DNA of 64,000 bases, from contig NC_134470.1 in the NCBI RefSeq assembly GCF_964194025.1, forward strand, positions 35,464,001-35,528,000, written 5' to 3'. This stretch comes from Convolutriloba macropyga (lineage: Eukaryota). The notes beneath the pieces are model-generated. The model was given only the letters and a program-made list of their open reading frames with translations, was not told the origin of the DNA and did no database searches. Below, in pieces: positions 15,920 to 64,000 of this stretch. The stretch's first letter is position 1. The number at the start of each line of letters is the position of its first letter. Both the position numbers and the translations under genes were made by a program.

Positions 15920-18900
15920 TGAGGGGGCAGTTTAAAACTCCTTCCCGTCCCCACTTGCAGCCCCACTCCGGCCAAGTTGGTCTCGCTTTCACGCGCTCTC
16001 AAAACAATGCCTCCAATTATATAAAAAGTGCTGATAAAACCGATGTTTGTTCCGACCCACTTGGGGGAGGAAGCTACTATATGCTCAATTGGGGCTTATT
16101 TTGTTCAGTCAATTTTGGCCGATCGAGATATTCATCGGAGGGAATTGAGACGATCATTAGAAAACCCGTCCAGCGTAAAATATGAATTTTTTTATTTTTG
16201 TTTTTCCTACAGGGAGTTATCGAGGTTTAAACTTTTGTGAATAATTGACGTAATTCGTTTTTTATTCACATTTTCGGTATTTCTTGACCAAATTTTTGTC
16301 AATTTTGCTAAAGTTTGTTAAAATTTCTAACAAGAATTTTATTGATCATACCGTTAGGGGTAGCGGAGGCTTGCAGATTGGCTTTTTCGTAGTCTAATGG
16401 TTAAAATAATTGCTATTTTTTTCGAATTTCAGTCTTTTTTAATCGAAAATGGCACCAAATAAGCTTTTTTATCCCACTTTGTTTAAATATGCCAGAAATA
16501 AGGACCACAATCTGCTGTCACAGTCATTGAAAATTCCTCAAAAAGTAAGTTGCACTCTCACTTCTTGTAGTAGTCTTCTTGAATTAAAATTTTGCAGGTT
16601 TTTTGAAAAATTATCTTAATAACTGTGCAGACATCAATTTTTTGGTTTGTTGAAATATTTCATTTGCTTTATAATCTAATTTGCAAATATATAGATTAAT
16701 AACTTGTTTTTGTTGGACGCACAGCAAATGAGGACTCGTTTGAACTCATCTTGGATTCTTAAAATCTATATTTTTTCGGATTATATTTGGGCTCGGTCTT
16801 TTTCAAAATTTTTTAAGATTTTTGTTTTTTATTATGTTGATTACTGACATTAATGTTTTCAAATTAAAACCCAATTAATGACTGATCCTGTTTACAACAA
16901 AATGAGGCAAAAAACAAACATTTTGTTTTCAGAGAGCTCGTAATCTTTATGGCTTTGACTGTGTTTTCGAAAACTTTTGCTTGCTTTTGTTTTGCCTTCA
17001 TTTGTCATTGTTTGCTGCCGCATGACTTTTTTTGCTATTAACGAGAGGTCCAATTATTTTATTAGCAGCTCAGGTTGAACATATGAAATGCTTTCAGTTG
17101 GTATCTAACGCATCTTATGACTTTGAATATATTTGTTTTAAAAAATGTTAAGATTTGAATTTTGACAATTTTTTGTATTTTTTTCTGTCCACATGTAGCT
17201 TCATCTCAATGCATAAAAGGCCAGTTTTATTCCGAGTGAAGTAAAGAACGCGCGTTATAGGGATTTTATATTTAACTAATGGTTTCTTGGCTTTCTTACT
17301 ACAAAATTTCTTAGTTTTTTTCGCATATTTACCAAGATTTGATTTTAATATTTGACCTTTTTTCAAACTATCCCATTAATGGCAGCTCAGTTTGTCATCA
17401 AAAGAATGTGCAAAATGACCGTGAATGGTTTCATTGAATAGCTTATACTTGGGGGGAGTTTAAGACTCCTTCCCGTCCCCACTTGCAGCCCCACTCCGGC
17501 CAAGTTGGTCTCGCTTTCACGCGCTCTCAAAACAATGCCTCCCAATTATATAAAAAGTGCTGATAAAACCGATGTTTGTTCCGACCCACTTGGGGGAGGA
17601 AACTATATACTCAATTGGGGCTTATTTTGTTCAGTCATTTTTGGCCGATCGAGATATTCATCGGAGGGAATTGAGACTGGATCATTAGAAAACCCGTCCA
17701 GCGTAAAATATGATTTTTTTTGTTTTTCCTACAGGGAGTTATCGAGGTTTAAACTTTAGTGAATAATTGACGTAATTCGTTTTTTATTCACATTTTCGGT
17801 ATTTCTTGACCAAATTTTTGTCAATTTTGCTAAAGTTTGCTAAAATTTCCAACAAAAATTTTATTGATCATACCGTTAGGGTTAGCGGAGGCTTGCAGAT
17901 TGATTTTTTCGTAGTGTTATGGTTTAAATAATTGCTAATTTTTTTTCGAATTTCAGTCTTTTTTAATCGAAAATGGCACCAAATAAGCTTTTTTATCCCA
18001 CTTTGTTTAAATATGCCAGAAGTAAGGACCACAATCTGCTGTCACAGTCATTGAAAATTCCTCAAAAAGTAAGTTGCACTCTCACTTCTTGTAGTAGTCT
18101 TCTTGAATTAAAATTTTGCAGGTTTTTTTGAAAAATTGTCTTAATAACTGTGCAGAAAACATCAATTTTTTTGGTTTGTTGAAAAATTTCATTTGCTTTA
18201 TGATCTAATTTGCAAATATATAGATTAATAACTTGTTTTTGTTGGACGCACAGCAAATGAGGACTCGTTTGAACCCATCTTCGATTCTTAAAATCAATAT
18301 TTTTTCGGATTATATTTGGGCTCGGTCTTTTTAAAAATTTTTTAAAAGTTTTTTGTTTTTTATTATGTTGATTACTTACATTAATGTTTTCAAATTAAAA
18401 CCCATTTAATGACTGATCCTGTTTTCATTAAAATGAGGCAAAAAAAACATTTTGTTTTCAGAGAGCTCGTAATCTTTATGGCTTTGACTGTAATTTCGAA
18501 AACTTTTGCTTGCTTTTTTTTGCCTTCATTTGTCATTGTTTGCTGCTGCATGACTTTTTTGTTATTAACGAGAGGTCCAATTATTTTATTAGCAGCTCAG
18601 GTTGAACATATGAAATGCTTTCAGTTGGTATCGAACGCCTCTTATGACTTTGAATATATTTGTTTTAAAAAATGTTAAGATTTGAATTTTGACAATTTTT
18701 TGTGTTTTTCTCTGTCCATATGTAGCTTCATCTCAATGCATAAAAGGCCAGTTTTATTCCGAGTGAAGTAAAGAACGCCCTTTATAGGGGTTTTATATTT
18801 AACTAATGGTTTCTTGGCTTTCTTACTACAAAATTTCTTAAAGTTTTTTTTTGCATATTTACCAATATTTGATTTTGTTATTTGACCTTTTTTCAAACTA

Positions 18901-44300: not shown

Positions 44301-47300
44301 TTGTTACTATTATTATTGAGTTCCCGTTTTTTGAAGCTGAAGATTGTAAAGGATTGTTGGATTGTAAAGATTTTTTTTCAACTCGCTGAAAAGTTATGAG
44401 GATCTTTGAATCCCTATGGTTGCTGTAAAAATCACAGCAGCATGACATCAAATTCCTCATTTGTTGCAAAACAAAGTTTGAAAACGAAGAGAACTGACAG
44501 TAGTACATTTATTCATGACAGCTTTGGTGTAAGAAAGTTTTGCCCAGCGGGCAAAAACTTTGTTCAAAGCATTTTTGTATCTAATTATTTCAGCTGAAGT
44601 GGTTTGTTTAGCACATATTAATAAAGAATTGGAAGCAGGTTTAGCTGATTTTGCTTTAAAGAGACATTATGAAGAACAACTGGTGAAAATTGGAGACAAT
44701 TTTGTCTCGTTGATAATGTAATTCAGCTAATCGAATTAATTATTGTAGTTAATGCAAACACAATTGTTCCATCTTCCAGTATTGTTCTTTTCTGAAAAAA
44801 ATCTTATGGCTACGAATAAGTTGAAATGAGACGTGATTCAATGAATACAGGTTATTTAAATCCTCTTTTTAGTTGATGAGTTTGGGTTCGTTTTTGGGTT
44901 GTTTAGAAAAAACATAAACATATGTAAATTAAATTTTTTGATTTATACAGCTAAGTTTACCAAGGTTTTTGTCCGTGATGTTCATCCTGAGGCAAAAAAG
45001 AGCATGTTAAAAGACAGTTATCTAGAATTGCAAACCTGAAACCAATTTGACAATGATTTATAGACAAACACGGCTGAAACAATTTTAAAACCGCCAATAA
45101 TGCAAATAGAATTGGAACTTAAACGTTTGAGGAAAACTCTTTTTGATAAAAACATTTTTGGTGCAGCTTGATAATAACGTTTTTTGGTGCTAAAACAAAT
45201 GTTTCGGCGATACCATTTCAGATATATCGATATATCTTATGCTTCCCAATGCAAATGTGGGATCATTCTGTGCCACGCACATAACAAGCGAACTTCTTGT
45301 TCTAATTTCTTCACACTTGTAATCTTCATCCTGTTCAAAGTAAAGAACACCAAGTAAGTACTAGAGCCTTAACGAAAACTTTCCCAAAGTCATTAACAAA
45401 GTATCAAAAACAAACGCAGTTTTGTGTCATTGAATTTTGTACTTTAGACTTCAGAAGCCATTACCAAATCAGCACATCCTGTATCAGAAGAAACTGCCAT
45501 TGAACTGGCGGCTCTTGCAGCTATCAGCGAGAACGGGCTAATTGATGCGCCAGTAAAGGAGATGAGTGCCCAGTACAAGTCGTACCTACCCGAGGAATAC
45601 CGAAAAGTGAGCAAAATTGACAAGCGAATTGACCAGGCAAGAATTAAGTACATCGATCAGATCAAGGCTGAAATTGAGTCCAATGATGCCAGCGCTGCAA
45701 ATAACCAAAACGATTTGGAGTTCATAGAAAAGGCTGAGCGAAAAGCGACGAAGAAATACATTGACAAATGCAGAGCTTTGAAGACATTTGGCTATCGGTT
45801 CTACTTAGTGAAAGAAAAGATGAAGAACAAAAACAAACTGGTTCCAGTGCTCCTAGGAGTGAACAAAGACGGAATTGTGACTGCGGATGCTGTGAACAAA
45901 GAAGTCACAAAGATGTTCTATTTACATCAGATTAAACAACATTTTTGCACAGATGCTTCTTTTCACATTACCTTGCCCGGGTACCAAGCGGAAGATTACG
46001 TTGTACAGACGAATGAGGGAAAGAACATTGTGAAACTGCTGGAGGGATACATCGAGATCCACTTGCAAAAGGTACTTTTTACACAGCCGTTATTTTAAGC
46101 GGAATATCACGAATGGTTTGATTGGATAAATAATTGGTGAAATTATGGGGTCAACCTGTAATAACTTCGGTTATAATATGTACAACGTTTTTCAATAATG
46201 TACCCATAATTTTTTGAGAGCGTCAAGCAATGCGTTGTCTGGAGTTGCTTTTCGTATTTTTTTTGAAAAAGTAACTGAGAATTTTCTGTGTAATTGGTGT
46301 ATGGATATGTTAAGATGAGGAAGCGGGAGAGGTTGAACAACCAGAACACGGAGAATACAATTCAAGAGGAGAACATTGACTCTAAGCAGGCACAGACGTT
46401 CCAGATTGGAGGGGATGTGTCTCAAAGAGGGGGAAACTTGGGAGGGTACCACGGCATGGCTGTGCCGCAGGTCATGAGGCAAGGAGACGCTAAGCAAGTA
46501 AGTTCAAGATTTTAATTTGTTTTACCCCGCGCTTCAACTTTTATTGGATGTGAGAAGCAATTTATATCTTTTATCCTGCTCGCGTTGTGGTAAATGGGCG
46601 AGTTAAATGTTTTAAGTGGAACGAAATGTTACTAATTTTTTATGGGTCTTTGACAGGAGCTTGAAGAAAAGTGATCGTATTCAATGAAGCTTTGAATTGC
46701 TTAGGTGACAATAAACAGAATTGACTGGGGTGCCAAGAAAGCGAAAGTTGGCACCTACTTTGATGAAGGGGTAAGAAGAGTAGCAGAGGTTGAGGATGAC
46801 CTCCTCGAGTCCCAGAGAGGCTATATTCTCTCGAACGAAGCTGCTGACATGAATGCAGCAGTTGCTGGTCTTAGGGCCAACGAGTACCTGAGTAACATTA
46901 CTCATTTAGCTGTCCAAATGCTGGTTCCAGAAAACGAAAACCAACTTCAGTACTCGTTATCCACTGTGTCCAAAGACCTGAAAGCGTTCTCAGAAGCGAT
47001 AAAGATTCTGGCATCGCAGCTTGAGGATCCAGAGAAACGGAACCTGATTGACAGCGCAGTTGAACTGACAAATGCTTTCGGAGATTTGCTAAGACTAGCT
47101 CATCCGGGAAGTGAGGCGACAGCCGAGCAGTTGCACGACGCAGCACAGAAGATTGCAGAGAAGGCACAGAATATTGTAGACCAGTTGGACCAATTTATTG
47201 TGATCGGATCTGGAGCGGCTAATAGTCAGGTAAACATGTTTCCCATTTTTAAGAAATGTATCACTGAGTGACCTCGGTTACCCAGCGATGATATTGGTTA

Positions 47301-48358
47301 CTCAATAACAGCTTTGGATACCATGAAGGCAGATGTTGGGGGTAGCTGATACCCTCGCAATTGAATTCCGTACATATTGATTGAAATCTCAAATGAAGCC
47401 TGGAATTTCTGGATTTGGATTAAAGTTGCTTTCACTGAAACCTGAGCCAGTATGGCTAAATGGTTGTTCATCAGTAAGTTGCATTTATCCAAAATTTTGG
47501 TGTATTTTGTTCTCGGTTTGTAAACACTGGAAGGTGTAGTTTTGCATTTCTATGCAGTATAAAATTTGACGAGTGATCAAAATTTGAATTTAGATTCTGC
47601 TGAACCTGGTTCAAGAAGTGTTGAGCAAAGTGGAGGCTCTGACCAATAAAGCTGGTGAAATAGCATTTACTTCCGGTGTTGAGCAGAAGGCACAAGAACA
47701 AATCATGCTCAGCAAAGGTAGCCTTGAAGGAGCCTCGCTCAACCTGAAAAGTGTCGCCCATTTATTAGCCCCGGTTGCTGCAAACGATCCAATGAGCAAA
47801 CAGCAGCTGTCACGTGCGACCGATAACGTTGTGAAGAAGGTCAGGGATGTTGTCAATAATGTGCAACCTAACTGTCCCGATACAGAAGCAGTTAATGAAG
47901 TTCTCAGCATGTCACATCAATTGCACAACGATTTGGGCAATCTAGGCAGCTTTATTCACACTCTTGGAACTGGCGACCAGAGCAACGCTTCGAGCCAGTT
48001 CAGTCAAATTAACGCTCTTATGCAGAAAGTGAGATACAACATGGACAAACAAGACCAAGAGGCTACTATCAATGCTCTGAAGCATTTGATGGTATCTTGC
48101 AATTACTTGATCAAACAAGCTAAAGAAGACGCCGGTAATCCAAATGTTGATGAGGATCAGAAGCACTCGATAATAGCTGCTGCTCATGGATTGACTGGAG
48201 CTATGCGAACGTTGTTAGCCGACATCAAGGCGTACCAAACTGACGGTGGGAAACCTCTATCCAGAGAAGAAGTGTTGGCCATTCTCAAAAGTGTCCAGGA
48301 TCAAGTCAATGAGTTATGCAAAGAAGATGCTATGAGAGATGTCTTCATGAAATTGGAG
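32193..48358 (+). CDS. TLN: Talin-like protein, 5' part (F0-F1-F2-F3, neck, rod R1-R3, start of R4); exons 32193-32373, 36812-36960, 37556-37867, 38650-38676, 40570-40785, 45448-46071, 46315-46497, 46705-47229, 47594-48358; probably continues beyond the window
   Basis: All introns are GT-AG and the phases agree (1, then all 0), giving 994 open codons. Talin signatures: FGLF..GIWY (F0), DEYSI, KKMEKLKKKLRTDDEILWLD, RRKFFFSDVNV..DPVQLSLLYKQ, HPVS, LKTFG.FYLVKEKMKNKNKLVP.LLG, VQTNEG..I..LL.GYIEI, then helical-bundle rod sequence. Confidence 0.93.
36812..36960 (+). CDS. TLN: Talin exon 2 (F0; VERFGLFVPK...EGIWYDSSRDIEKLG...TLQ), missed by the ORF track
   Basis: gtgtttAG acceptor and GTtact donor. 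The translation matches the talin F0 pattern FGLF...GIW. Confidence 0.85.
37556..37867 (+). CDS. TLN: Talin exon 3 (end of F0, F1 and first part of the F1 loop)
   Basis: ttgttttAG acceptor; LEYRSLYRTITINLP...VGEIVRMVCQKEGI...DEYSI; donor GTaggt at 37868 (phase 0). Confidence 0.9.
38650..38676 (+). CDS. TLN: Predicted 27-nt symmetric microexon in the talin F1 loop (ASNSMMSRI)
   Basis: Branch-point-like actaac (38631-38636), aattttcAG acceptor, 9 open codons and GTaagc donor. Phase 0/0 fits between exon 3 and the 40570 exon. Confidence 0.6.
38783..39871 (+). mobile_element. Family B copy in a talin intron
   Basis: ttAATAGCCGC head; GCGGCTATT-tt-CCGGCAatcTGCCGG-gtatgtt tail; body matches 22390-22930. 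Confidence 0.7.
40570..40785 (+). CDS. TLN: Talin exon (end of F1 loop, F1/F2 junction)
   Basis: aattttAG acceptor; ATIGRNAKKMEKLKKKLRTDDEILWLDH...RRKFFFSD...DPVQLSLLYKQ; GTtaac donor. Confidence 0.95.
40827..42447 (+). mobile_element. Family B copy with substituted interior, in a talin intron
   Basis: Intact ttAATAGCCGCG...GCGGCTATT head and CGCGGCTATTttCCGGCAatcTGCCGGctatgtt tail. Confidence 0.7.
42652..44204 (+). mobile_element. Family B copy with degenerate termini
   Basis: Body matches the other B copies (gaagtcaaattggag.agtgattttggtca.gccgaaa); tail remnant atctgccagctatgtt. Confidence 0.55.
45448..46071 (+). CDS. TLN: Talin exon (F2 and PTB-like F3)
   Basis: actttAG acceptor; TSEAITKSAHPVSEETAIELAA...KEKMKNKNKLVP...GYIEIHLQK; GTactt donor. 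Confidence 0.95.
46315..46497 (+). CDS. TLN: Talin exon (head-rod neck)
   Basis: Weak tgttaAG acceptor and strong GTaagt donor. TIQEENIDSKQA...HGMAVPQVMRQG resembles the talin neck (TMLEDSVSPKK...HGSVALPAIMRSG). Confidence 0.8.
46705..47229 (+). CDS. TLN: Talin exon (rod R1)
   Basis: gcttAG acceptor and GTaaac donor; amphipathic helices including LIDSAVELTNAFGDLLRLAHPGS. Confidence 0.9.
47594..48358 (+). CDS. TLN: Talin exon (rod R2, R3, start of R4)
   Basis: gaatttAG acceptor and GTgagt donor; 255 open codons of helical-bundle sequence. Confidence 0.9.
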
Positions 48359-50044
48359 GTGAGTGTCTCCTGTTGGGGACAGTTTTCCATTAAGTCGATC
48401 CAAATGGTTTTCGAAACAGCCTAAATGGAATGTTCTAGAAGGGCCGAAATAAGAAACCAAGATTGTTTAGTAACAATTTTGAGACCCGTTTCAAAAGTTT
48501 TGTAAATGATATGAAGCTCACTGAACACTTTGATTTCTGCATCTTTGCAAACGATTCACAAACGTTTAGTTTCCAATTGCACGCAAAAGAAGTTTACCTA
48601 CCATCCAACTTAGTCTGTCTGGGCTTAGCTATCAGTTTAGTCTTTCTCTCTGGGCTGTAATGGTCATTTTGATGCGATGCTTTGTCTGACCTATTCAACT
48701 TTTCGTCGAGAGAAACGCGATAAATTGGTAACCTTCGCGTATGAAGGTATTAAGTGGCGGTGCAGTTCTTTAAGAGCTTTACCAGTCTCTACATTCCACA
48801 GTTTTCATTTAGGATTCTTTTGATATGCTCTTGAACAAATTTTCTAGCTATTTGGTGTTTTCGGGCGAATTTTCATCTGATTTTCATCCGCTTTCACTTG
48901 TCGACTGAGTTTTGCGGTCTATTCAATTGTTTATTAGAAACGCGTGTGCTACGGCCTTCAAAGATGCACACAGAGAATAGAGATTGTCTGGTTTGATGAT
49001 AAAACAATACAACTGTAAGGGAATTTTAAAACAAAATATTGGAAAAATAGCCTTCTCTAAAAGACCAGCACAAAACAGCTAAACTTGTTAAAAATCTAGA
49101 TTAATTTGATCGAATTTATTCCGTAAAATGTCTCAGTTGTACAAGTGGTCTGAAAGAAAAGATCTTTAGTTTGCGAGATGATGAGGAAACCAGCAAGCAT
49201 TAGCGGAACGTTGTGGAAAAACAACCAAATATTTCAAAATGGCATCAGACGATGGCAAAATTTAAGATAGAACACTAAAATCATTGAACACTAAAAATCA
49301 TGGAGTATGCAGCAGCCACACTAAATATTTTTTGTTCAAAAAGTAATTTGTAAGCATGAGCCTACAATAATCAAAAACAGAATCGATATCAAAAGTGAAA
49401 AATTGTATTTTTTTACGTTGCCAGGCGCTGACAGCAGAATTATTTTTGTTTTGGTAATTTGTAACGTTATATATTCTTTATTTGCATTTTTAATGTCCAA
49501 GGCTGGCGAGCGCGAGATTTTGTGTACATGCAAAAGCATAGTTGAAACTAAGTAGTTTTCCAGATATGTTGTTCTTTTGTTTTAGCTAATTTTGAGAGAA
49601 AAGAAGTTGTTTAAGTCAATTACCAGTCACCGGTTTCCAGCTAGAACATGCCGACAGATTGTGCATTATTTTTGAGATCTCTTGATGTATAGGAAAAACT
49701 GAGGAAAGTTTCTGTAATAACAGTTTTTACCAGAAAGCACCAAATTTGAGTGCTGCATGACGTCAAACGGCCGGAATTTAAGAAATTTAGGTATAGCTCG
49801 CAATGGCGAAAAACTGAATTCACTACAAATTGCAAATAATTAAACTTATTTCGGAAAAAAACCTGCAGAACTTTAATCGATAGTGCTCTTCTGGCAATTG
49901 AGTACAAATATCTCTTGTAATTTTAAGAAAGTGCCTGCCGTTTTTTTATTATTGCTTTGGAAAATTTTGGACAAAAAGGCTGATTTATCATTTAAAGCGT
50001 ATTTTGAACATAAAAAAGGCTTTGTAGTAATTAAGCTGTGACCA

Positions 50045-52881
50045 AACAAGGATGCTCGTTAATGTGCGTTCGCACATGATGTTCCGACCCGAGCTCATCT
50101 ACATTTTTGACTTAATTGTCAACCTAATGATGCGATACTTAACAATAGACGTTTGAATTTTAACAAAATCGTTATAAAATCGAACTACTAAAGGAGTTGC
50201 ATAATACCATGTCTAAATACAGCGCTCACAAGATCTGCCATTAGAAAGTCTGCGAGAAAATAAACAACAAAATAAGCAAAAACAAAAATTTTTCAGCGAA
50301 TATGATAAAAGAATAGAAAAAGAAACACAAATATTGACCACTCACAACACTTTTATGAAAACGCATATTGTCCAACAAACAAAACGTCAGTTACGACATG
50401 ATATCAATGGAAAAATAATTTCTGAAAAAAAATGGATGGAACCTCTCAAGGATGAGAATAAATTACAAGTTGACGAAAAGAACAAAAACTGAAAATTAAA
50501 ATTTATCTTTTTGAACGAACATCGTAAACTTTACTACTATTCGCTATAAACTGAGTGCATTGGCAACATCATTCATTGAACCCTCAATTAGAAGCCTATG
50601 CGACCAGTCTGCATTTTACGACTACATGAAGAATTTAAAAAAAGGCAAAAACAGCAAATTAAAAAAAAATGAGGGAGGAAAAGTGTCGAAGCCAAGAAAA
50701 GAAGAAATTTAGTAAAAAATTCTGTAATCTCAAAAAAATCTTTAGCGGCGTTGGGGTTCTTCTAATTTTTAACAATATGACTTCAAAAAATCAACAAGTG
50801 TGAACAAATATAATAAAACCACGAAATTTTTGAGAAAACCCGTTATGTCAACGGCGTTAAATTCAATGTCTTTGACCTGAAGACAAAAAATACAAGTTAT
50901 GCCTTAATGAGAAAGCAAGGATGTTTGTCAATCATAAGTCAATAACCGGACATCACAATAAGTCTTATGATTATGAAAACAATATTAAGTATATGAAAGT
51001 TCAGAAGAAAAGTCCGAGAAGAAATTGTCGAAGCCATTTAAACCAAACTCGTTTCTCTGAACTCTTTATCTATGATTCTTAGGACGTCTTTTATAAGCCA
51101 ATATGAACTATCAATATTAGGATAAGGAGATAAGTTTTCAAAACGAACCAAAATTACAAAAAAAATCCGAAACTTTTTTTTTGAAATTATGAGAACTCGT
51201 GGCATCGAAGTCATAAAACAAATATTTAGCAAATAAAACCGCTTCCCAGAGTATTTTCCAATGCAGTAAAAAGGAGGGTGGTCCTTTCACTGCTGAGACT
51301 AATAGTTCTTGAAAAATGTTTTAATAATGGTTGGTGTCCAAAAATGTTTTTTTAAGTCTTGATAGCCACCAAATTTCACAGCTCTCAAAGGAAATCAATA
51401 AATACGCAAAGTTTTGCCTCAATAAGGAGGTAAGGATGTTTATCATTTTTAAGTTATCAATAAGACGTCAAAATAAGTCTTATGATTATGAAAACGACAA
51501 AAGCAGGCAAAAACTAAAAATTCAGGGGAAAAGTGCAAGTCCATATAAACCATAAACTTTTCTCTGCAAACTTTATCCGTGATCAATTGAACGCCTTCTT
51601 TAAGTCACTGAGAACTTTCAATATCAAGTTAAGGTGATGAAATTTCAAAGGGAACCAAAATTACAAAAAAATATACAAAAGTCTAAAATAAAATTATGAA
51701 ACCTCGAAGTCATAAAATCAGCAGTTAGACTATGAAACCACTAACAAGATTCATTTTAGTTGCAGTAGAAAAAAAGGGAGTTGTTGTATACTGATACTGA
51801 CTTAAGGTTCACGAAAATAAGTTTAAGATTAGTTAATGTCCAAAAAAATTCTAAAAAATAATTTATGGGCAGAACAGGATGTTTATCATCAATAGGTCAG
51901 CAATAAGACATCACAACAATTCCTATGATTATGAAAACGACGTTAAAAACAGGCAAAAACGAAAAAAAAATTCAGCGGAAATTTGAAAAGAAAGTGTCGA
52001 AGTCATTTAAACCATATTTTTTCTGAAAACTTTATCTAGGATCTATTGGAGGTCTCTTTTATGCCAATGGGGACTGCCAATGCGAACATAATGAGATTTC
52101 AAAAGGAACCAAAATTTTTTAAAAAAAATACAGAAATTGTTTTTTTAAATTACAAAAACTGGTGTTATCGGAGTGATAAAAATAATAGTTGCCAGATGAA
52201 ACCGCTTAACAGATTAGTTTTGATTGCAGTTGAAATGATTGTGGTCCTGTCTCCTGTCATTACCGAAACTGACTTACTTTTCATGAAAATATGTTGAATA
52301 TTTTATTTTTCAAAAAAAAATTTTTTGAATTTTTTTTAAGTCTTGACAGCCGTTAAAGCACTATAAAGGTTTACATAATACATATAAGAAAGCCGATTGC
52401 ACTTTTAGTTAGCGAGTTTATGCCATAGGGCTCTCAGAACTTAATTACATCTCAAAAAGAAAATCAAAATTTCATTAAAAATTTCGAAAACTCAGTTTTT
52501 CATTAAAGGAACCTCGAGATGAAAATGACTAAAAAGTCTCTAAGTGAATAAAAAAACAATAAAAAATAGGAATGTTTTCTAAAAAAAACAGCTCAAATTG
52601 AATTCGAGATTTTTTATTGTAAATTTTCTCACGAGACCAGAACTAGCCTTTTTATCGGTCTTCTGGTAACTCTAAATTGTTTCATTTTGTAACGTGAAAT
52701 GTAATTTTGAAATAACATTTTTATAGAAAAGCCTCAGTTTGAAAAAAAAATACGCTAAAAGTGAACAAAGTCATGCAAATATCACGATGATTATATCGAT
52801 CGGCCAAAATTGACTGATTAAAAAACCCATTTGACTATATAGTTCCTCCCCCCCCCCACCCCACAAGTGGGGTCGGAACAA
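50045..52881 (-). mobile_element. Family A copy A5, inverted relative to A1
   Basis: Collinear reverse-complement match to 9049-12634, including both termini and the three subrepeats. Confidence 0.75.
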
Positions 52882-53890
52882 TAATTCAGGAATCATTTAT
52901 CTCTAAAAACAAAACAAATAGCCTTATGGTAAAGTTTTAATATTTTGTAACAAAAACAAAAATTTGAGCAACAATTATGGAAAAAGGAACCAAAAATGGA
53001 AATATGCCGGATTTCCGGTTTTCACGAAACTTAATAACTCGATAACTTCGAGAAAGGTAAAATTGATAAAGTCTTAAAATATTTTTGCTCGAGGGGTTTT
53101 CTGATGATGACACCCATAGTTTTCTACTTAAAATATTGAAAATACGCCAAAGTTGACTGAACGAAAAATCAGTTCCTCAACCGCTATATGGGTAGCGAAA
53201 AAAACTTGCGTACTTATGTTCGAATATACGTCAGAAAGTTGGCTTTATTCTTGCGCAGCTTTTTCTATTGGAATGTATCAAAGACGAGTCAGACTTTTTC
53301 TTAGGCAATTTACAGAAATGTCGTCACCGTGGCAACCCAGTCGAAGGATGGGTTTTATTTAAGGCAGAAAAAATTGCATTCCAACCGTGTAAATGAATCA
53401 CGTGGATTGGGCTATTCATAATCTTAAAAGTTTGACCCCCCTTAGTCACCCCCACTCCCCGTACACCCTCCTCTACCTCTCGTTCAGCCCTCCCAATCCT
53501 AAACACCACCTATCGCTTGACACCTCCCACCCATGTTTGATCCCCCTGCTGCGCTCACCCCTCCCCCTTAATGATGGCATCCCTAAGCCTCAGCTGGCTA
53601 CTATCGAAGCAAACCTCTCGCCGGTTGTTTGAGATCATTTCGCCCGTCGTTAGTCGGTTATGTTTAAAGTTAGGAAGCTTCCCAAACGTTGTAATAAAGC
53701 AGAACTCATTCGTACTTTTTTCGTGCATTTTTCGTGCTATGATTTTTTCACTTCTTTGAATGAGAGGTCACATTCTTTTGAAAAGCCAATCGATATTACA
53801 TAAACTGACATTGTTCGTGGACTTCAATAAACAACTCGTTAATAGTTGTATAATAGGCACTTTCGACACGTTTTCTGTTCAAAAAGTGCT

Positions 53891-54567
53891 TGTAACGTCC
53901 TAAAGTACGTTTTATTTAGTAATCGATATATCTTTTCCCCAATTTTATTGATCGCCTTATTTAATGCTATATCTGCTATAATCTCAAGGCCATCTATAGA
54001 CTTCATTTTTCTGCCTTATAAAGATGAGAAAATTTATAATTACTCTATGAACATCCTGTAAACTATCTCAAGTATATTTGTCTTAAAAACCATTTAACTA
54101 TCTTTTGTTATTTCATTTACCCATAATAGAGGAATTTGTGACAATGCTAGCCTGTATTTATTTTTACAATGTACACTTTACTATGTCCGGCACGTGCCAG
54201 CACGTGGCAGAAGTTCTATTTATCTTGAGTTAATCTTGATGTATTTGTATAGGTGATTACTCAAATGTAAATACGGCCCCCAGGTCTAAAAACGTATTAA
54301 TTTAAGCGACACAACCAAGATTGTCAAGTTGAAATTCAGCAGTCAAGTAATTCAGTCTTAGATTGAAATCCTGTTCGCTAGTGAAAAAAACTTATAGCTG
54401 TCGGCTCTGCTCCAAACGAAAATTAAAACCGCTCAGAAACAATTAATCATGCGAAAAGAATAATTTAAGTGATAAAAGCCATGCTACTAAGTAGTTAATT
54501 AATTTAGCGGGAAACATTACTTCAACAAATTTAACACAATAATATAGCCAGACAAAGGTATATTACA
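53891..54567 (+). repeat. Putative 5' LTR
   Basis: Ends ...TATTACA directly before the PBS. The best matching start is TGTAACGTCC at 53891, unverified because there is no second LTR to compare. Confidence 0.55.
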
Positions 54568-54581
54568 TGGTGACAGGAGTG
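54568..54581 (+). promoter_or_regulatory. Primer-binding site, tRNA-Leu type
   Basis: TGGTGACAGGAGTG directly after CA; one mismatch to TGGTGTCAGGAGTG, the complement of a eukaryotic tRNA-Leu 3' end. Confidence 0.75.
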
Positions 54582-55322
54582 TAGACAGCTTTTTCAATTA
54601 GTTCCTTCAAAAAAAAAAAAAATTGTTTATCTTTTGAATGTTGCTTTTTTCCAATGCCATTGTTATTCAAAACATTACCAACTTATTTGCACGATTCAGA
54701 TGAAGTTAGACAACTGCACAAATTTGATTTAACACTCTTTTCCTACGGAAGCTCCAACATCGGAAATAACCTCCGCAGAAACGTACACTATCTTTCTTGA
54801 AGATAATTTATTCATTCTTTTCATTGTTGGACTTACAGAAGATTACAGAGACAGGCTCATTGCAATAGTATCATTCGACAATCAGTTTGAATTCAGAGCA
54901 GTAATTAAGTACATAAAAACGGAAATGCATCTCGACTTAGAAAGCCTGAAAACTCAATTATTATTTGAAAGCGGAGATTGTAACTAAAATTAGTACTTTA
55001 TGACTCACCCATTATCGATGTCTCTGAACAAACTTTGTTTTTATTCTACTGCAGCCTTCTTCCTCTTCTTCATCATTGCTTATTATCTGATCACAGCACT
55101 GTTTATCTACCTCTTCATGACAGAGAGCGCCATCAGTTTTTCCAATTATCAATAGTCAGTGCAACAGAGATTGGAGCCTAAAAGAAGGTGACGCCCAATG
55201 ACAGTGACATCACACTGAGACACAGACACAAAGAACAAGAGAGTAAAACCCCTATTGGTAACAAAACTGAGTTAACCAGGAGACTGTGAGTTAGAACGTA
55301 TAAATTTTGGTGCTAAATTATA

Positions 55323-55670
55323 ATGCCTTCCCACGATTTATATAATACCCAATTACTCCCTGTTGTTAATAACTGTCGCTATTCAAACCATTTTGTGGAA
55401 TATGTAGACTGTAACTACATACAATTCATTAGCCCCCAAACTAACAACCTTATTATCTCAACAGCCATTAGTGCCTTTGTGTCTGACAAAACAAAACAAA
55501 TCGTGCTTCTAACTCAAAATTCTATTGACAAACGCGCCTTACTAATATTTATCCCCAAGACTTTGCGACAAAAAGCACGTGAATTTTCTAAAGTTAGACA
55601 TCTCATGACCCATTGCTATGACATTGATTTAGATGATTTTGAATCTCCCCTCATTGTAATTTCTGAATAA
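55323..55670 (+). CDS. Accessory ORF (115 aa, unknown function) between PBS and gag
   Basis: Intact ATG-to-TAA ORF inside the retroelement leader. Confidence 0.4.
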   Translation: MPSHDLYNTQLLPVVNNCRYSNHFVEYVDCNYIQFISPQTNNLIISTAISAFVSDKTKQIVLLTQNSIDKRALLIFIPKTLRQKAREFSKVRHLMTHCYDIDLDDFESPLIVISE

Positions 55671-55732
55671 TTGCATTCCCAGCCCACCCAGATCATCACC
55701 TTTAATTTCATTGAGTTCAGTTTTAAACTAAG

Positions 55733-56954
55733 ATGGCCGATAACGCCCAAATAACAGTAGAACCCTATAGAGGAGCCGAAAATCAAAGTTTCCGCCAATT
55801 CCGCGGCGGAAACTTTGATTTTCCGAGGTTTCATCGGTGTCGCAGCAATTCCGAGGTTTCATCGGTGTCGCAGCAATCCCTGTTAACCAACAATCAAATT
55901 TTCTGCAACTCCACCTCCAAGACGCCGCGTTACGATATTTTCAAACGTTGCCTGAAGCAACCAGAAATGATCTTGAATTAAGCCTCACAGCACTCAGGGA
56001 CCACTTCGCGAATCAAGATCTTCAAGAGGTACATGTTCTTAAATTAGAACAGCTGCGATTTGACCCAAAAACAGACAGCCCCGAAAACTTCCTACTGAAC
56101 TTACAAACAAAGGCCCAGCGTGCCTACCCAACGCCAAATCTGCCAGCAGTTGCAGCATTAGCGCTCCAGGAGATGGAGGAGCAGGGGATAGAGCAGAGCA
56201 CGCACGCTTCGATGGAGAAACAGCCGTACGAGCTGTAAGATTGCAAGCAGCAGAGGACAACAAGAACGAACAAGTTAAGCGAATCTTCATAAAAGCCATT
56301 CCGGGATGGCTGCGATCAAAATTGATGGAACAACCACCAGCCACGCTAGTTACCGACCTCTGCACCATTGCTCGACAACAGATGACAATCAGAGACATGT
56401 GCAGAAAAGATGACTATCCTGAAGATGGGTTCAATGAAATCAATAACGCCGTGTCCGAAAACCTGATAAATGCGCTCTCTAAATTGAATCAGAGGCAAGA
56501 TTCATTAGACAAAAAGCTTTAAACAATTGACGACCGCATCACGGCGACACATATAGAAACAACAACACAAAAAGATGTAACTCACTCTCCCCAGCAATCA
56601 TTTAATAGACCGGGGCAATTCACCGCGGCGCCCTACACGCCTAGAAATAACTATGCAAGTCAAATGTATCAGAACTCTTACAGAGGAATTAATCTTAGAG
56701 GCCGAAACTTCTTTAATAGAAATCCGAGACCCCGTTTCCCAATCACTAATGCTCAAGTGTTTTATCCTCGAAATTTAATACCTCAGTCACAACCCCGCAT
56801 GCCCACCAGCCCATATATGACTGGGACTAGATCCAGCGGTACCTTCTGTTATACATGTCGTTATCCAAATCACCGATCAGGTCAATGTTCTCAGAGAGGT
56901 AGAACTAATAATAGAGGAACCTCATTTCCATATAATAGCCAATGAAAAAACTAA
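55733..56954 (+). pseudogene. gag (frameshifted, with stops)
   Basis: Fragments MADNAQITVEPYRG, LQLHLQDAALRYFQTLP, VKRIFIKAIPGWLRSKL and the zinc knuckle CYTCRYPNHRSGQC (CX2CX4HX4C). Confidence 0.85.
56945..56951 (+). promoter_or_regulatory. -1 ribosomal frameshift heptamer A_AAA_AAC at the gag-pol junction
   Basis: The heptamer is in the gag frame and directly followed by TAA; the protease ORF (56993) is in the -1 frame. Confidence 0.7.
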
Positions 56955-59900
56955 TAATGCCACCCTTAACGCCCAAAAGTCGCTGACAGTCCATGAAATC
57001 TTTAGAGCAGCCTAGCAAACTATTTAATCTTTACAATATAAACCCTAATATGAGATCATCCCTTCTCCCCTATGTCAAAATTAAATTTAATAACGGAATA
57101 AGCCGTCGAGCACTAATTGACACCGGCGCTTTTGCAAATTTCATAAGCAACAGATTACTCCAACAAATTACCGGAACTGACAAAAACGCAGTCAAATTGG
57201 AGCAACCAGATTGTACTTCAGTCAAAATGGCTGGAGGACAACTAGTCAGAATAGAGACAGGCCGAAATTAAATTTAAACTCGCTAACAGAGTTTGTCGAA
57301 GACTTCCTTGTCCTTTCCTCTACAAACTCGGTCATCCTTGGTAACCCCTTCTTTATCAAGCATGATATTTCAATTAGCCCAAAACAAGCTCTTATTCAAT
57401 TCCCCGATTTGACAGTTCAAATTAATGAAATCAAGCCTGCAAACGAAAAACGACCAGCAGTAAGACATAAGAAGCTTCCCATTTACACAATCAAGAAGCA
57501 CACAATACAGCCCAGCACAGCACAGCAAGTTCTCCTGGAATGCTATCTATCAGATAAAACCGATCAGTTTGAGAACAAAAGTGGAGTAATCGCTCCTAAT
57601 GAAATTCTCGAAGAAGAAACACAGATTGCACTAACTTCTTCGCTAAGTACTGTACGAAAGAATAATATATTGTACGTCTCTGCCCTAAACGTAACTGAGA
57701 ACCCTATCACAATCAACAGCCGAAAAGAGGTAGGCAGATTCTCAATCCTTTCAACCGAGCAAGCCGACCAATTGATACAAATTGACCCACAACTGATAAC
57801 GCTAGCAAAATCAAGAAACAAAGATGACTATTTTGCGGAATTGAACCAGCTTATCCAAGATTTCGCCCAGCACAAACCAGGCCAAACTAGGAGACATCCA
57901 CCGGAATATAATAAACTATGGTTTCCGACACCAGAAACTTGCGAGGACCCATGTAATTTGCCGTTGCTACAGCAAGAAATTTACGACCAAATATTAAATT
58001 TCCAAAAATTGGAGAAGATTGATCCACGAAGTAATGAAGAAGACCGTAAATTCTTTCTCAGTAAATTCAACTGGGACAGTTCGCCATTAAATCAGAAGCA
58101 AATTGAAGAATGCGAGCACTTATTAATTGAATATTGTGACATTTTCGCCAAACACCGGTTTGACGTCGGATACAATATGGAACTGAAAATAAAGCAAACT
58201 CCAGAGCTTGACTTACCTGTATATGTACAAGGACCACCAACCCCAATCTATCTACGCGAAGAACTCCATATTGAATTAGCATTAATGCACTACTATGGAC
58301 TTGTAACAACTTTGTCACAGTCTAAATACAGTAGTCCATTCTTTGCTCATAGAAAAGAGTCAGGCAAACTGAGAATTTTAATTGATCTGAGAAGAGTCAA
58401 CCACCTACTAAAAAATGACTACCACGGCACAAACATTCCAATCTCAAACATGGCTGATGCAACCAGGTATTTTGCAGGAAAAACATTGTTCACAAAACTT
58501 GACTGCTCGCAAGCTTATCATTGCGTACACATGGCGGACGACACCTCAGTACAACTTTTAGCTTTCAATTTCTCATCAAGAACTTAAGCGTACAAATGTT
58601 TAGCTCAAGGACTTAGCAAATCAGTTACCGGTTTTAGCTCATTCTTTTGCCATTATCTAGACGCTTGTTTAGCAGCCGGCATATGCACACAATTCATGGA
58701 CGATATTGGGAGTGCAGTAACAGAATTTAGTCAGATACTTCCTAGTCTAAGGAAATTTTTCGATTGCATCCGGAGATCTGGACTGAAATTGTCACCAGAA
58801 AAATGCGAAATAGCCTCACAGTCAATCAAATTACTGGGCAGTACAATTACAAATGAGGGAATATCCCTAGAAGCAGAGAAAATCAAAAAGTTTTTAAAGA
58901 AGATTTCGATGCCAAGAACAACCAAACAGGTCAAAAGACTAATTGGCTTCGCTCAGTTCTTCAGAAATTTTATCCCAAATTTAGGCGAGAAGCTTATACC
59001 GTTTTATCAATTGTTACGTAAGGGAGCCGATTTTAAAGCGAAAGAAACCCATTACAATGCATTCGAAACTGTGAAAAATGATTTACTTGAAGCAACAGAG
59101 ATGACGCTCAGATTACCTAAACCTGGCCTACAATATGTCCTCCTCTGTGACGCAAGCTACTACGGAGCCGGATTTGTGCTTATGGTTGAAGACTACGTGA
59201 CAGGAAAACAGTCAAAGGAAAAGAAAGTCTACGCTCCAGTATCTTTTGGATCACAACTCTTCACGACAGCACAGCTGACGTTTTCAACTTATTACAAAGA
59301 ATTCTTAGCACTTTTTTTGCATTAGACCAGTTTTCCCACTACATCTGGGCATCCAGTCATTCAGTTTTTGTACTCACGGATAATCGAAGTTTAACGCATT
59401 TCTTTCAGTCAAAAACCATTCCTCCATCACTGGAACTTTTTGGACCGAGTTCTTTCGTTTAACATAGTTATTGCCCATATTCCCGGAAAAACTAACTATG
59501 CAGCAGATTTTCTCTCACGCGTACAGACAGATAAAGGAGCCAGCCTGTCCCTTAAAATAACGGACAAAGTACCAGTCCGTGAAATATATGTTGAATCTGC
59601 TGAACCAGATGAACCAAATATATGTTGAACCAAATGAACACGGCCCCTGAACCAGAGATGGAAGAAGTTACCATCGTCTCACAACTACGGGAACTCGGAC
59701 TTTACGACGCGTATATTGAACGAAAACGAGAGAATGGAGATGAAATAAGTTCAAGCGTGCGGAAGTTAACGCAAAACAATATGCGAACCAAGCTGATCTT
59801 CTGAACGATTTGACGGATAGAGAAGAAATATTAGATTTGGCGAGTGAGCAGACAAAAGGCGAAGAGATCATGCATGCAATTGAGTGGAAACGCAAGGGCC

Positions 59901-61350
59901 TAAATAGAGACTTGAAGTATGCATCCCGACTATTGAAGAAATACGTGAAACAGTTTAACCATTGGGAAATTGAAAACAACACATTATACAGACAATTCTT
60001 TGATGACACAGGCAAAAGATTTTTCAAGCAATACTGCCTGCCAAAGCATCTCTGGAAGGAAGTAATCTATAGACTACACAACTCACCAACAGGAGGACAT
60101 TTGGGAACACTTCGCACAATTCAAGAATTCCGAAAACGATTTTACTATCCTGGTTTTACTGAACATTTCATCGATTTCATCAACAATTGCATTACATGCC
60201 TACAGCTCAAGCAAACAACGAATAAACAACTGCAACCACCATTACAGTCTGTATCTTCACTACAGTCATTCCCCGGAGAAATGATGCAAATTGACTTAGT
60301 TGAACAAAAAGGCCCAATTTACAAATTTGTTTTTATTGGAATTGTTTACGAAGTACTTGTTTGCAGTGCCACTGACAAATGGTAGTGCCGACACAGTTGC
60401 CAGAGAGCTTGTGAAGATTTTCTGCCAGCATAGTTACTTGCCTAGTACATTACTGAGTGATTTAGGAACAAATTTCACCTCAAAACTAATGGCTGAGTTA
60501 ACGAAGTTACTCGAAGTTAAACTGAAACTTGCTATGCTGAAACACCCACAGACAATTGGAGTAGTGGAACGCTCACAGGCAGCACTTAAATGGATCCTTA
60601 AACTCAATTCCAATGAACAGTGGAATGATTGGCACAAATATGTACCGCTTGCAATCTTTATACACAATACATCGTATCATTCTTCAATTAATTGTTGGCC
60701 GACAACTCTATTTCATGGACGTGAACCTATTAAACCCTTGATCTCCGTTTTTCCACACGAGCAATGCAAGAAGTTGAAGTCAGTTCAGATTACGTTTCGC
60801 AGCTACAAGACGCAATGCTTCGAAAATTTGGCTAAAACAAACAAAGACGTTTAGATTCCTACCAGCGATACAGAAGTGACTATGATCAAAAAGCTGAAGC
60901 ACAGCCACTCAAATTGCATTCACCTTGTCTACTAATAAACCCTCGTCTAACAAGGAAAAACGATTTTACACAGAAAGCAGTTAAAACATGGCTATCACTC
61001 TATAGAGTCGAAAAAGTCCTAACAAATTCAAATTATATTATTAGAAAAACAGGAACAAATTATAGTCAATGTGTTCACCGGTTCAGGCTAAGACCTATCA
61101 ATCTGACAGAGCCACCAGACGATATACAGGAAATTGATCCTGCGAAGTTCGAAGCGGATCCGTTGAGAAGAACAACTCGAAATGAGCCAGAATTATTTGA
61201 GTACATTCCAAATTTATTAGAGGAGGAGCAAAGTACCGCATTTCAAAGACTGTAACAGTTCAACCTTCGCAAATACGCCTCGGCGTAATTGTTCCTCTAA
61301 ATGGAGCCCCTGCAATGCCATTGGTTGCACCAGTACCTCCGATAGTGCCG

Positions 61351-61393
61351 GTAATACCGCCAATACCCGTAATACCGCCAATACCCGTAATAC
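61351..61393 (+). repeat. 18-bp coding tandem repeat (VIPPIP) in the post-integrase linker
   Basis: gtaataccgccaataccc repeated ~2.4 times. Confidence 0.8.
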
Positions 61394-61949
61394 CAGCGGA
61401 AATCAGAACACCTTCGCCAATGAATTCGCCAAGAAATTCGCAAGAAAATTCACCCCGAGAGTTTTGCAACACCCGAAGAACTTCAGTATCCTGAAAGCCC
61501 CCCCCCCCCCCCCCCGCCCCCCGGAGCCGCTGAGAGCGAGAGAATTACAGCACATGACGAAGAAGATACAGAACAACAACCGGGACCAAGTACTCGAAGC
61601 AATCAAAACAGAGTTAACTTTGCAAAAATGCGAGGAGTCGGAAAATTTGAATCTTGGGAACTTGTAGCACGCTGCGGTTCACGTTCTCAAATGCCACGAC
61701 TGCCCGAATCTCCCACACAGCCACCTATCTTAACAAAAGAACAAAAACACCAAATAATTACAGAATCATCGCGCAGATCAAGAACGGATAAAACTCCAAC
61801 TAGAGAAACGAAACTAGACCAAGTCCGATCTAGCATTGAGAGATACCAACGAGGCTCAACTGATGAGAACAGAGGAATAACCCAAAGCCAGTCAAAGAGC
61901 AAACAAACGACTTCAAACATAAATGTAATTGAAATTGGAAAAACCAGAG

Positions 61950-62397
61950 CCAAATTCTTCCATCATAGAGGTGATCTTCTTAACTCCAGATGCTCTTTTG
62001 CACATTGCATATCAAGTGATATGAATATGAGTAAAGGCCTCGCTCGGCAACTTGTCACCTACTACCCCGAAATGCTGCAAAGTCAAGAATTCGCGCAAAA
62101 ACCACCAACAGTTTCCGTTATCTCAAGTTATGAAACGACTTTAAATCGATATATCTTCAACCTGGTCACGAAAGAGAACTACTATGATAAACCTACTTAT
62201 TACAACCTCTCAGTTGCTCTTCACACACACTACGATTTGTTATATTGAAGCACAGCATATGCTCTAATAATTTACCAAAACTCTGATGTGGTCTCGATCA
62301 ACTTTCAGAAAAAAGTGTTTTACGACAGATTATTGAAGTATTTTCGGATGTTCCAGTAAAAATTCACCTATACAAGTATAACACGGCCAGAAAGTGA
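61950..62397 (+). pseudogene. TARG1/OARD1 (Poa1p-like, DarG-related) macrodomain at the end of pol
   Basis: HRGDLL...FAHCISSDMNMSKGLA...RYIFNLVTKENYYDKPTY. After a shift at the (CA)n run near 62222 it continues LRFVILKH...LPKL*CGLDQL...IIEVFSDVPVKIHLY. Confidence 0.85.
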
Positions 62398-63872
62398 TAA
62401 TGTGCAGTGGCCAGTTAACCAGTTGACGCGCATTATCATGTCTTAAAGCGCCTTAAAACAGCGGCAAAAGTTCGAAAATAACTGAAAAATGTAGAACGTG
62501 TACTTGGTTTATCTCCAGTGTCCCCAGCAAAATTCAACTTTAGATGACACAAAGTGCATACATCGCCTCTACATATAATGCCAATAACGCCGGGGAACCG
62601 AAAATGAGCGTAGTTTGGGTAATATTGGAGAAAAATGAACCTTTTTCCAGAAAATGATCCAAAACTGACACCACAAGACTTACCCTCAAAAAATGGCTGA
62701 GTTAGAGCCCCTAAAAAGGCCCCCAGATGCCCGGAAACATTTTTCTGGACCCCAGGGATACAATCCAGAGTCGAGGTGCCCTAGCAACGAGTCTGAGGCC
62801 ATTTGGTTAAGAGTACTGCAGACATGAATTCGTGGAAATCAGACCCCTGAAAAATGGCTCAAAAATCAACAACACACACAATTTCATGAAAAAAGTCTTT
62901 TGACAGAAACTAACTATACTACCATTGAGATTGGCTTCCGTACTAATTAATCAGACCAAAAAATGAGGCGATTGATGAGTTCCTTATAGTTTTATACAGT
63001 CTGAATGGCCAAAAAATTAATCTGACAAAAGTTGTAAACAACTTTAAAAATGCCAATCTTGGTAGAGACGTATGATTCACATCGGAAACGGCTGCTAATC
63101 AAATGCTCCAAACCCAGAAAACAAATCATTGGAACAGAAACTTTATACTGCTCTTACACCTCAAGTATTTACTTTTATACTTGAGAATATCGAAATGAAA
63201 ACTTACGTCATGAAAACAGATTTCAACGCGGAGGAGAGTGCCTACAGTCCTATTTAGAAAGCAATAAGTCCACATCGGACCAAAAATCCTCGAAGACTAA
63301 ACAATCTGATTAAAAACTTTATCTCATACTGTTTTGAAAAATCATAAAATCACAGTGAAAATGAGCCAACAAGGTCCTTAGATACTCTCCTACAAGTTCT
63401 AGGGAATGAAATTTTTAAATTTGAGCTCGAAAAATTATAAACACCAAAAATAGGACGAACCTTCTGAAGAAATAATTATGTGACAGTTTGATGATCTGAA
63501 TATCAACTCATACTGTTTCCCGAAAATTGAAATTAATATAACGAAATTTGGCATGCACGTTCCCGACAAACCTAACTACAAATCTTCGGAGTTAGTTTTT
63601 CGTCTATGGAAAAAGTAAAAGAAAAAACCGACTCCAAACCAAATGGAGTTTGCTAATATCACAACAGTTAGTCCGTTGCAAACTGTCTAACTATTAATTG
63701 TTTTCAAAACCCAAGTTACACAGCCAGCCGCAACACACTTACATGCTTTTACTAAATTGCTAGTGTCTTGAATAAACATGCATAATAAAACAAACCGCAG
63801 TATATCAAACAAGTTGCTAGCAATAAAACAACTCACCGGCTAGTCACGCCATCCGTTCAGCAGCTTCATCAA

Positions 63873-64000
63873 ATGTCTCCAACACTACTGCTGGCCACGA
63901 TCCAAATTCTTCAGTTGACAAATCTCTCAGCTGACTCCCGGCTGATGATGAGGGCTGATAATGCCTCCCAAAATTGGACGCGCGCTTTCGTTTTCGGCTC
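63873..64000 (+). CDS. Start of a putative env-like secreted glycoprotein ORF (open to the window end)
   Basis: MSPTLLLATIQILQLTNLSADSRLMMRADNASQNWTRAFVFG: hydrophobic N-terminus and three N-x-S/T sequons, downstream of pol. Confidence 0.4.
   Translation, partial: MSPTLLLATIQILQLTNLSADSRLMMRADNASQNWTRAFVFG

Follow-up and report, generated by a model that had tools for sequence, protein, structure and literature searches.

Human TARG1 (also known as OARD1 or C6orf130; structures 4J5S and 2L8R) is a free host protein that takes ADP-ribose off glutamate and aspartate residues and off thymidine in single-stranded DNA via Lys84, and rescue from DarT is abolished in its K84A mutant, as described in the available part of PMC8501950. 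Lys84 and Asp125 form its catalytic dyad, whereas bacterial DarG (5M3E and 5M3I), which has the same macro fold class and the catalytic Lys, is without the dyad Asp according to the accessible text of PMC9411070. It has also been reported that PARP1 modifies single-stranded DNA at Okazaki fragments, as well as unligated fragments, and that TARG1 removes this ADP-ribose (PMC11102865, in excerpt).

The capture of accessory enzymes by retroelements is already known, as is the presence of a macrodomain in some of them. Some Repbase entries mention macro domains, as do CDD annotations of insect pol proteins. Epsilon-like fish endogenous retroviruses carry a macro domain (available part of PMC4977317, citing Basta et al. 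2009); the initial annotation of this locus had remarked that some other retroelements have such domains. These viruses, compared here through that citing description only, are also reverse-transcribing but belong to the Retroviridae and not to Gypsy. NADAR, an ADP-ribose-processing domain, is found inside Ectocarpus Gypsy Pol and in oyster Tx1 LINEs (accessible sections of PMC12477816), but in the brown-algal Gypsy it has an unrelated fold and lies N-terminally in Pol. Pol has an extra C-terminal domain in chromoviruses and in further Gypsy elements that bear a reader after the integrase (PMC12440569 and PMC12477816, each in part), transposable elements capture chromatin domains (excerpt of bioRxiv 10.1101/2021.11.30.470311, the supplements of which might list macro fusions), and rotifer retroelements share enzyme ORFs (PMC5408684, in the available portion of which 'macro' was not found). 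On the host side, ZAP/PARP13 and SIRT6 ADP-ribosylation have been linked to retrotransposon restriction (PMC4982230 and PMC4695847, in part). The available part of PMC12859917 contained nothing relevant. A TARG1-type macrodomain in Gypsy was not found described in the literature searched, which was short on subscription journals and Repbase Reports, and the occurrence of the TARG1 subclass at several positions of Gypsy Pol looks undescribed.

The window analyzed here, a stretch of 64,000 nucleotides from Convolutriloba macropyga (contig NC_134470.1), contains a decayed Ty3/Gypsy element with the order gag-PR-RT-RH-IN, which is followed by a macrodomain (Table 1).

Table 1. Features of the macro-bearing element, with positions counted from the first nucleotide of the window.
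Feature	Position	Strand	Evidence or remarks
Primer-binding-site-like sequence (CA then TGG...), possible 5' LTR end	54568..54581	+	
gag, broken	55733..56945	+	Seen directly; CX2CX4HX4C knuckle 56847-56888
Aspartic protease (LIDTGA ... ILGNPF), frameshifted	57050..57370 (approximate limits)	+	Seen directly
Reverse transcriptase (FMDD) and Ty3/Gypsy-type RNase H, broken, no tether	58050..59525	+	Pfam RVT_1, RT_RNaseH, RT_RNaseH_2
Integrase	60041..61199	+	Pfam: H2C2 zinc finger 60041-60211, rve core from 60327
Pro/Ser/Arg-rich linker, two frameshifts	61200..61918	+	Seen in the window copy
INVI, hydrophobic-N/Q/H/E-x-hydrophobic motif, candidate element-protease site	61919..61930	+	Just ahead of the macro fold
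TARG1/OARD1-type macrodomain, last domain of pol	61949..62397	+	Six-frame reading, PDB matches, profile score
LVTK motif	62162..62173	+	Lys codon 62171-62173, aligned with TARG1 catalytic Lys84 / DarG Lys80
CGLD loop	62287..62298	+	Asp codon 62296-62298, aligned with TARG1 Asp125; Gly aligned with Gly123

The domain order, the CX2CX4HX4C knuckle and the lack of a tether between RT and RH place the element in Metaviridae/Ty3-Gypsy by the criteria of PMC12440569, and the RT-to-RH gap is about 66 aa, as in another macro-bearing pol (P0175). The integrase of a relative (P0099) had Ty3 Gag-Pol as its best match (E 2.3e-18), with foamy virus close behind. The window RT was only 20-26% identical to those of 17 other macro-bearing pols, sat on a long branch in an RT tree built without named references, and gave weak PDB matches. 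The integrase C-terminal p58/GPY-F-type region (61001-61096) was below the cut-off (E 0.018), and three gag pieces had no match in Pfam. Troyka was ruled out by its knuckle (CX2CX8-10HX4C vs the CX2CX4HX4C found here; PMC12440569), and a chromovirus was ruled out by the lack of a Chromo match in any tail ORF or sister protein.

Pol is interrupted by stops at 58585 and 60833 and by frameshifts near 57260, 59310, 59430, 60350, 60740, 61245 and 61457, so that at least nine breaks lie outside the macrodomain, two of them in the linker. With this many breaks, the window copy is dead and its macrodomain is out of frame with its integrase. The primer-binding-site-like sequence is presumably similar to tRNA-Leu. 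No LTR pair was found within the 64-kb window, nor any 3' LTR matching this site; the 3' LTR may have been lost or lie beyond 64000. Rfam gave no matches over 52000-64000. The roughly 1.2 kb from the primer-binding-site-like sequence to gag (54568-55732) contains a decayed reading frame (longest open piece 55323-55670, 115 aa), possibly an extra ORF upstream of gag, with no meaningful Pfam match. The start of gag is disrupted by a short imperfect palindrome (55778-55823) and a local duplication (55800-55880) in which TTCCGAGGTTTCATCGGTGTCGCAGCAAT occurs twice. Elsewhere in the window, a talin-like gene, which suggests an animal host, lies in large open pieces at 45448-48424 (FERM, PTB and talin rod domains in Pfam), and positions 1-53000 hold many dispersed, strand-biased T-rich repeat families as well as tandem-like duplications of 0.5 and 1.5 kb, such as 16066-17321 vs 17592-18848.

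In the macrodomain of the window copy, a six-frame reading showed that a single frame holds GDLL (61970), AHCIS (62000), LVTK and KPTY (62189), the motifs of a macro fold that the initial annotation had placed at 61950-62397. This frame is shifted at a (CA)n run near 62222, and the next one reads PKL-stop-CGLD, with a TGA at 62284-62286. The remark that only these two lesions break the sequence holds for the macrodomain itself; the rest of pol has many more. The natural stop is the TGA at 62395-62397, which is also where the sister proteins P0002 and P0010 end. When the two halves were searched separately against PDB, the top five rows were human TARG1/C6orf130 both for the N-terminal half (E 1.8e-5; chain residues 11-92) and for the C-terminal half, in which the stop was read as X (E 5.4e-4; residues 101-144). 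The two matches are collinear and abutting, which indicates that the likeness to a macrodomain is not due to chance, and a profile built from 25 non-element macrodomains gave the domain a score of 123 bits. The catalytic Lys and the CGLD Asp proposed earlier were retained by alignment with TARG1, whose numbering here uses a PDB chain offset of 6 that reproduces both published numbers. On the other hand, Pfam reported no family for either half, and unbroken sister macrodomains scored below its cut-off (P0004 had no score at all); the check proposed for a macrodomain was answered by the PDB search and not by Pfam, and this insensitivity of Pfam even to unbroken sisters may explain why such domains have been overlooked.

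The whole unbroken macrodomain of P0002 matched TARG1 with E 1.3e-15 and DarG more weakly (E 3e-5). Its AlphaFold model (pLDDT 79-98 over residues 181-320) was superposed on TARG1 4J5S with E 3e-13, TM 0.88 and rmsd 1.6 A, and the structural ranking was TARG1, then DarG (TM 0.83-0.84), then viral macrodomains; as the model was built from 78 aligned TARG1-like rows, it is not independent of the sequence match. A single-sequence fold of P0011 had a pLDDT of 40 and was unusable. By sequence and predicted structure, the domain is of the TARG1/DarG class and not of the MacroD or viral X class, in agreement with the TARG1-like pattern suggested at the outset. Human TARG1 is the best match in both respects, with the same motifs and the same positions of Lys84, Asp125 and Gly123, but the window domain ends a retrotransposon Pol, is about 31% identical to it, and has only a predicted activity. 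The window domain has Lys at the equivalent of residue 84, where the SCO6735/ALC1 subclasses have Gln. A DarG antitoxin was ruled out because the domain ends pol at 62397, has the Asp and matches DarG less well than TARG1; unlike DarG, the window element has no DarT partner. Searches of a phage collection yielded 14 macro records with 28-34% identity, none closer than other macrodomains, and the ESM Atlas yielded generic Macro clusters at 0.94.

The same architecture was recovered from protein databases. A search with the N-terminal half identified six proteins among 19 candidates, five of which are close sisters (76-85% identity), and P0004 covers the integrase tail, the linker and the macrodomain up to its end in one frame. 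Scanning 1.84 billion representatives with P0004 gave 1,306 matches, of which the best 150 were examined. When 156 proteins were compared with the window regions, seven (P0004, P0011, P0014, P0020, P0039, P0049 and P0077) had integrase tail, linker and macrodomain in one frame, 40 had integrase only and 105 macrodomain only. Most of the integrase-only proteins end inside the linker, and two of them, P0099 and P0143, have macro sequence by profile; P0099 joins H2C2, rve, tail and the N-terminal half of the macrodomain in one frame. Long fused forms were not found among 69 candidates when a single sequence region served as the query, but a profile search of longer proteins did find them (P0162, P0168 and P0218, with integrase and macrodomain in one frame). 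In total, 11 database proteins carry integrase tail, linker and macrodomain in one open frame, which supports the macrodomain as part of the element family, in frame with the integrase in other copies, and speaks against a one-off OARD1 insertion that sister copies would lack. Two integrase tails of more than 350 aa with a shared end (P0098 and P0115) have no macrodomain, suggesting that the domain is dispensable for kin.

Among the seven fused proteins first compared, the macrodomain could be aligned in 21 of 21 pairs (median z 21 vs shuffles) and the integrase tail likewise in all 21 (median z 31), whereas the linker of about 100-265 aa aligned in three (median z 1.9). Two helices are predicted in the last third of the linker (61700-61870; residues 108-149 of P0002), and similar segments are visible in P0011, P0020 and P0077, which may explain the few alignable linker pairs. 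The column entropies of 11 subfamily rows (median identity 34%) followed those of 104 other TARG1-like macrodomains over 131 columns (Spearman 0.77). In the window lineage, 22 of 24 covered rows have the catalytic Lys and 14 of 20 have the Asp125 equivalent, which is replaced in the other six; several of the misses are decayed copies. Several binding-loop residues are also lost in the P0218/P0091 subfamily, and with the Asp losses this implies that some branches may be non-catalytic or decaying. Among the closest sisters, the macrodomain has diverged to the same degree as the linker (about 70-90%), a pattern that neutral decay following insertion would produce. Across diverged subfamilies, the macrodomain is conserved at the sequence level, so that neutral evolution, named in the initial annotation as grounds for rejection, appears not to describe the family, as judged on proteins only.

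Macrodomains of the same type were also found in other LTR lineages. The macro profile matched 82 long proteins, 27 of which have a retroelement Pfam domain by a precomputed column; Pfam mapping was run on 25 of the 81 new ones. The TARG1-type macrodomain lies after IN in P0175, P0188 and P0199 (only about 30-40 aa beyond the IN C-terminal domain), between RH and IN in P0084, P0182, P0184 and P0231, between PR and RT in P0176 and in a large family centred on P0163/P0183/P0212, and before PR in P0135 and P0171. In the PR-RT family, Lys is present in 49 of 51 rows and Asp in 51 of 51; both are present in all 13 further rows, two of which (P0198 and P0217) are of uncertain element status. These LTR pols (P0175, P0188, P0176, P0182, P0184, P0084 and the P0163 family) thus share the macro class and the Lys and Asp with the window element, but differ in the low RT identity given above and in the Pol position. 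Some further features were observed. In the P0163/P0212/P0204 family (ENA contigs), whose macrodomain may be a sister of that of the window lineage, a VHAL/IHAM motif follows in some rows. P0084 has an intact macrodomain and a degenerate second one after RNase H (483-621 and 658-787). P0188 (1354-1377) and P0199 (347-375) are Gypsy pols ending in IN, the TARG1-type macrodomain and a CCCH zinc finger, a pairing that we take to resemble RNA-binding PARP-family proteins. Moreover, TARG1-like macrodomains occur in fusions (P0164, P0170, P0179, P0190, P0089, P0082, P0124, P0123, P0165 and P0235) with DNA ligase III/BRCT, FEN1/XPG nuclease, uracil-DNA glycosylase, NADAR and viral methyltransferase; these partners support a role of the macro class in DNA repair or conflict.

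The origin of these domains was examined in a tree of 66 of 140 rows, in which near-copies and two thirds of the ungrouped rows were left out and the bootstrap was not fully settled. The 14 macrodomains of the window lineage formed one branch (98/87), a grouping that is partly circular since five of them (P0033, P0090, P0091, P0104 and P0128) are fragments with only the macrodomain whose labels came from an earlier tree. A sister relationship with the PR-RT family was unsupported (90/43), the deep forks were open, most rows had no taxonomy, and no named host OARD1 was included. The element-borne macrodomains scatter in the free tree, but AU tests rejected neither one origin for both post-IN groups (p 0.27) nor one for all 30 element-borne macrodomains (p 0.085). 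Independent capture is thus unproven, and swapping of modules between elements fits equally well.

Just ahead of the macro fold, 12 of 15 window-lineage rows have a junction-like motif of the INVI type, which precedes the xHC motif by 23-27 residues; it occurs once in 2,319 linker residues and in none of 37 control macrodomains; it was defined post hoc, after viewing the sequences. In P0002, it lies outside the modelled fold. The motif was absent at the same offset in 14 rows of other lineages, nor was it a marker of the RH and PR junctions that were inspected. We assume that it resembles Ty3 protease sites; the Ty3 site pattern was not found in the available part of PMC4974528, where Pol is described as being packaged and then cut into RT and IN by the element protease.

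Taken together, these observations point to a TARG1-type eraser that would be packaged with Pol and protect element cDNA or proteins, and that would have been kept under purifying selection in this Gypsy clade; the probability of this whole explanation is roughly 0.6. A Ty3/Gypsy clade would long ago have gained a TARG1-type ADP-ribosyl hydrolase as the final Pol domain. In active copies, by analogy with Ty3, the domain would be made within Pol and hence packaged in the particle, and the conserved junction-like motif suggests that the element protease probably frees it from the integrase tail. The freed domain could then remove mono-ADP-ribose by its Lys/Asp dyad from replication intermediates, namely single-stranded, nicked or end-exposed cDNA, or from Glu/Asp-modified element proteins. 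The reported substrates, single-stranded DNA and unligated fragments, would resemble intermediates of reverse transcription and integration. The benefit might be the undoing of host PARP-type marks that arise from defence or from the routine DNA-damage response at integration. That the macrodomain is tolerated at four Pol sites with its catalytic residues intact suggests a packaged enzyme rather than a part of the integrase.

One alternative, raised in the initial annotation, is a reader: the macrodomain would stay on the integrase and steer integration to ADP-ribosylated chromatin or DNA breaks, much as chromodomains direct it to heterochromatin. Its place C-terminal of IN, shared by chromodomains and the Ectocarpus Tudor domain (PMC12477816, in part), its short distance from the IN C-terminal domain in P0175, P0188 and P0199, the localization of TARG1 to DNA damage (available text of PMC4695847) and the loss of catalytic-loop residues in some subfamilies agree with this. 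However, it is weakened by the three other Pol positions (before PR, between PR and RT, and between RH and IN), by the linker of about 100-265 aa, which is long and unconserved, with the junction-like motif in the window lineage, and by the retention of the catalytic Lys in almost every row, since a pure reader would have no use for it. In contrast to chromoviruses, the window lineage has an enzyme-type domain with catalytic residues whose position varies across lineages. The free position, the catalytic residues and the junction-like motif together favour a packaged eraser, and we regard tethering as unlikely.

A role without host conflict, in which the domain acts inside the particle on element RNA, primer tRNA or DNA ends and rids them of ADP-ribose caps or NAD-derived by-products, seems to us improbable as well, and sequence cannot separate it from the packaged eraser. 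TARG1 reverses ADP-ribosylation of terminal phosphates in vitro (PMC8501950, in part), RNA processing has been proposed for the Gypsy NADAR (PMC12477816, in part), P0188 and P0199 couple the macrodomain to a CCCH zinc finger, and fusions to DNA ligase, FEN1/XPG and UDG are among the matches; however, several host hydrolases are redundant for this job (excerpt of PMC8501950), and related elements without the macrodomain exist (P0098 and P0115). The domain might also be a passenger, derived from a single capture of a host OARD1 transcript and of no benefit to the element. The pseudogene state of the window copy and the even decay of linker and macrodomain in the closest sisters would fit, but 11 proteins keep the domain in frame, in subfamilies with linkers that can no longer be aligned, its conservation profile matches that of functional macrodomains (rho 0.77), and its 14 rows form one supported branch (98/87). 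At the level of protein sequence, this reading appears already largely refuted and is very improbable.

The macrodomain is a real, conserved feature of this family of elements and belongs to a wider pattern that seems to have been little described. Selfish elements retain extra domains only when these pay, and the presence in Gypsy Pol of a conserved, catalytically complete TARG1-type eraser, at four positions across distant lineages, suggests that retrotransposition is under pressure from ADP-ribosylation. We tentatively suggest that several distant LTR lineages have repeatedly gained or swapped catalytically intact ADP-ribose erasers because hosts ADP-ribosylate retroelement cDNA or proteins in a defence not recognised until now, a possibility based on the four Pol positions of the TARG1 type and on NADAR in brown algae. 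If true, this would parallel the DarT/DarG phage conflict in eukaryotes, with the transposon as the carrier of the antidote. We know of no host ADP-ribosyltransferase that acts on these elements. The available text of PMC8501950 and PMC11102865 treats as open both what TARG1 acts on naturally and what ADP-ribosylation of DNA does in eukaryotes in vivo. The element sequences hint that hosts may use ADP-ribose tags against these elements; the unbroken element domains provide direct test material, and their substrate preference would show which host mark is countered.
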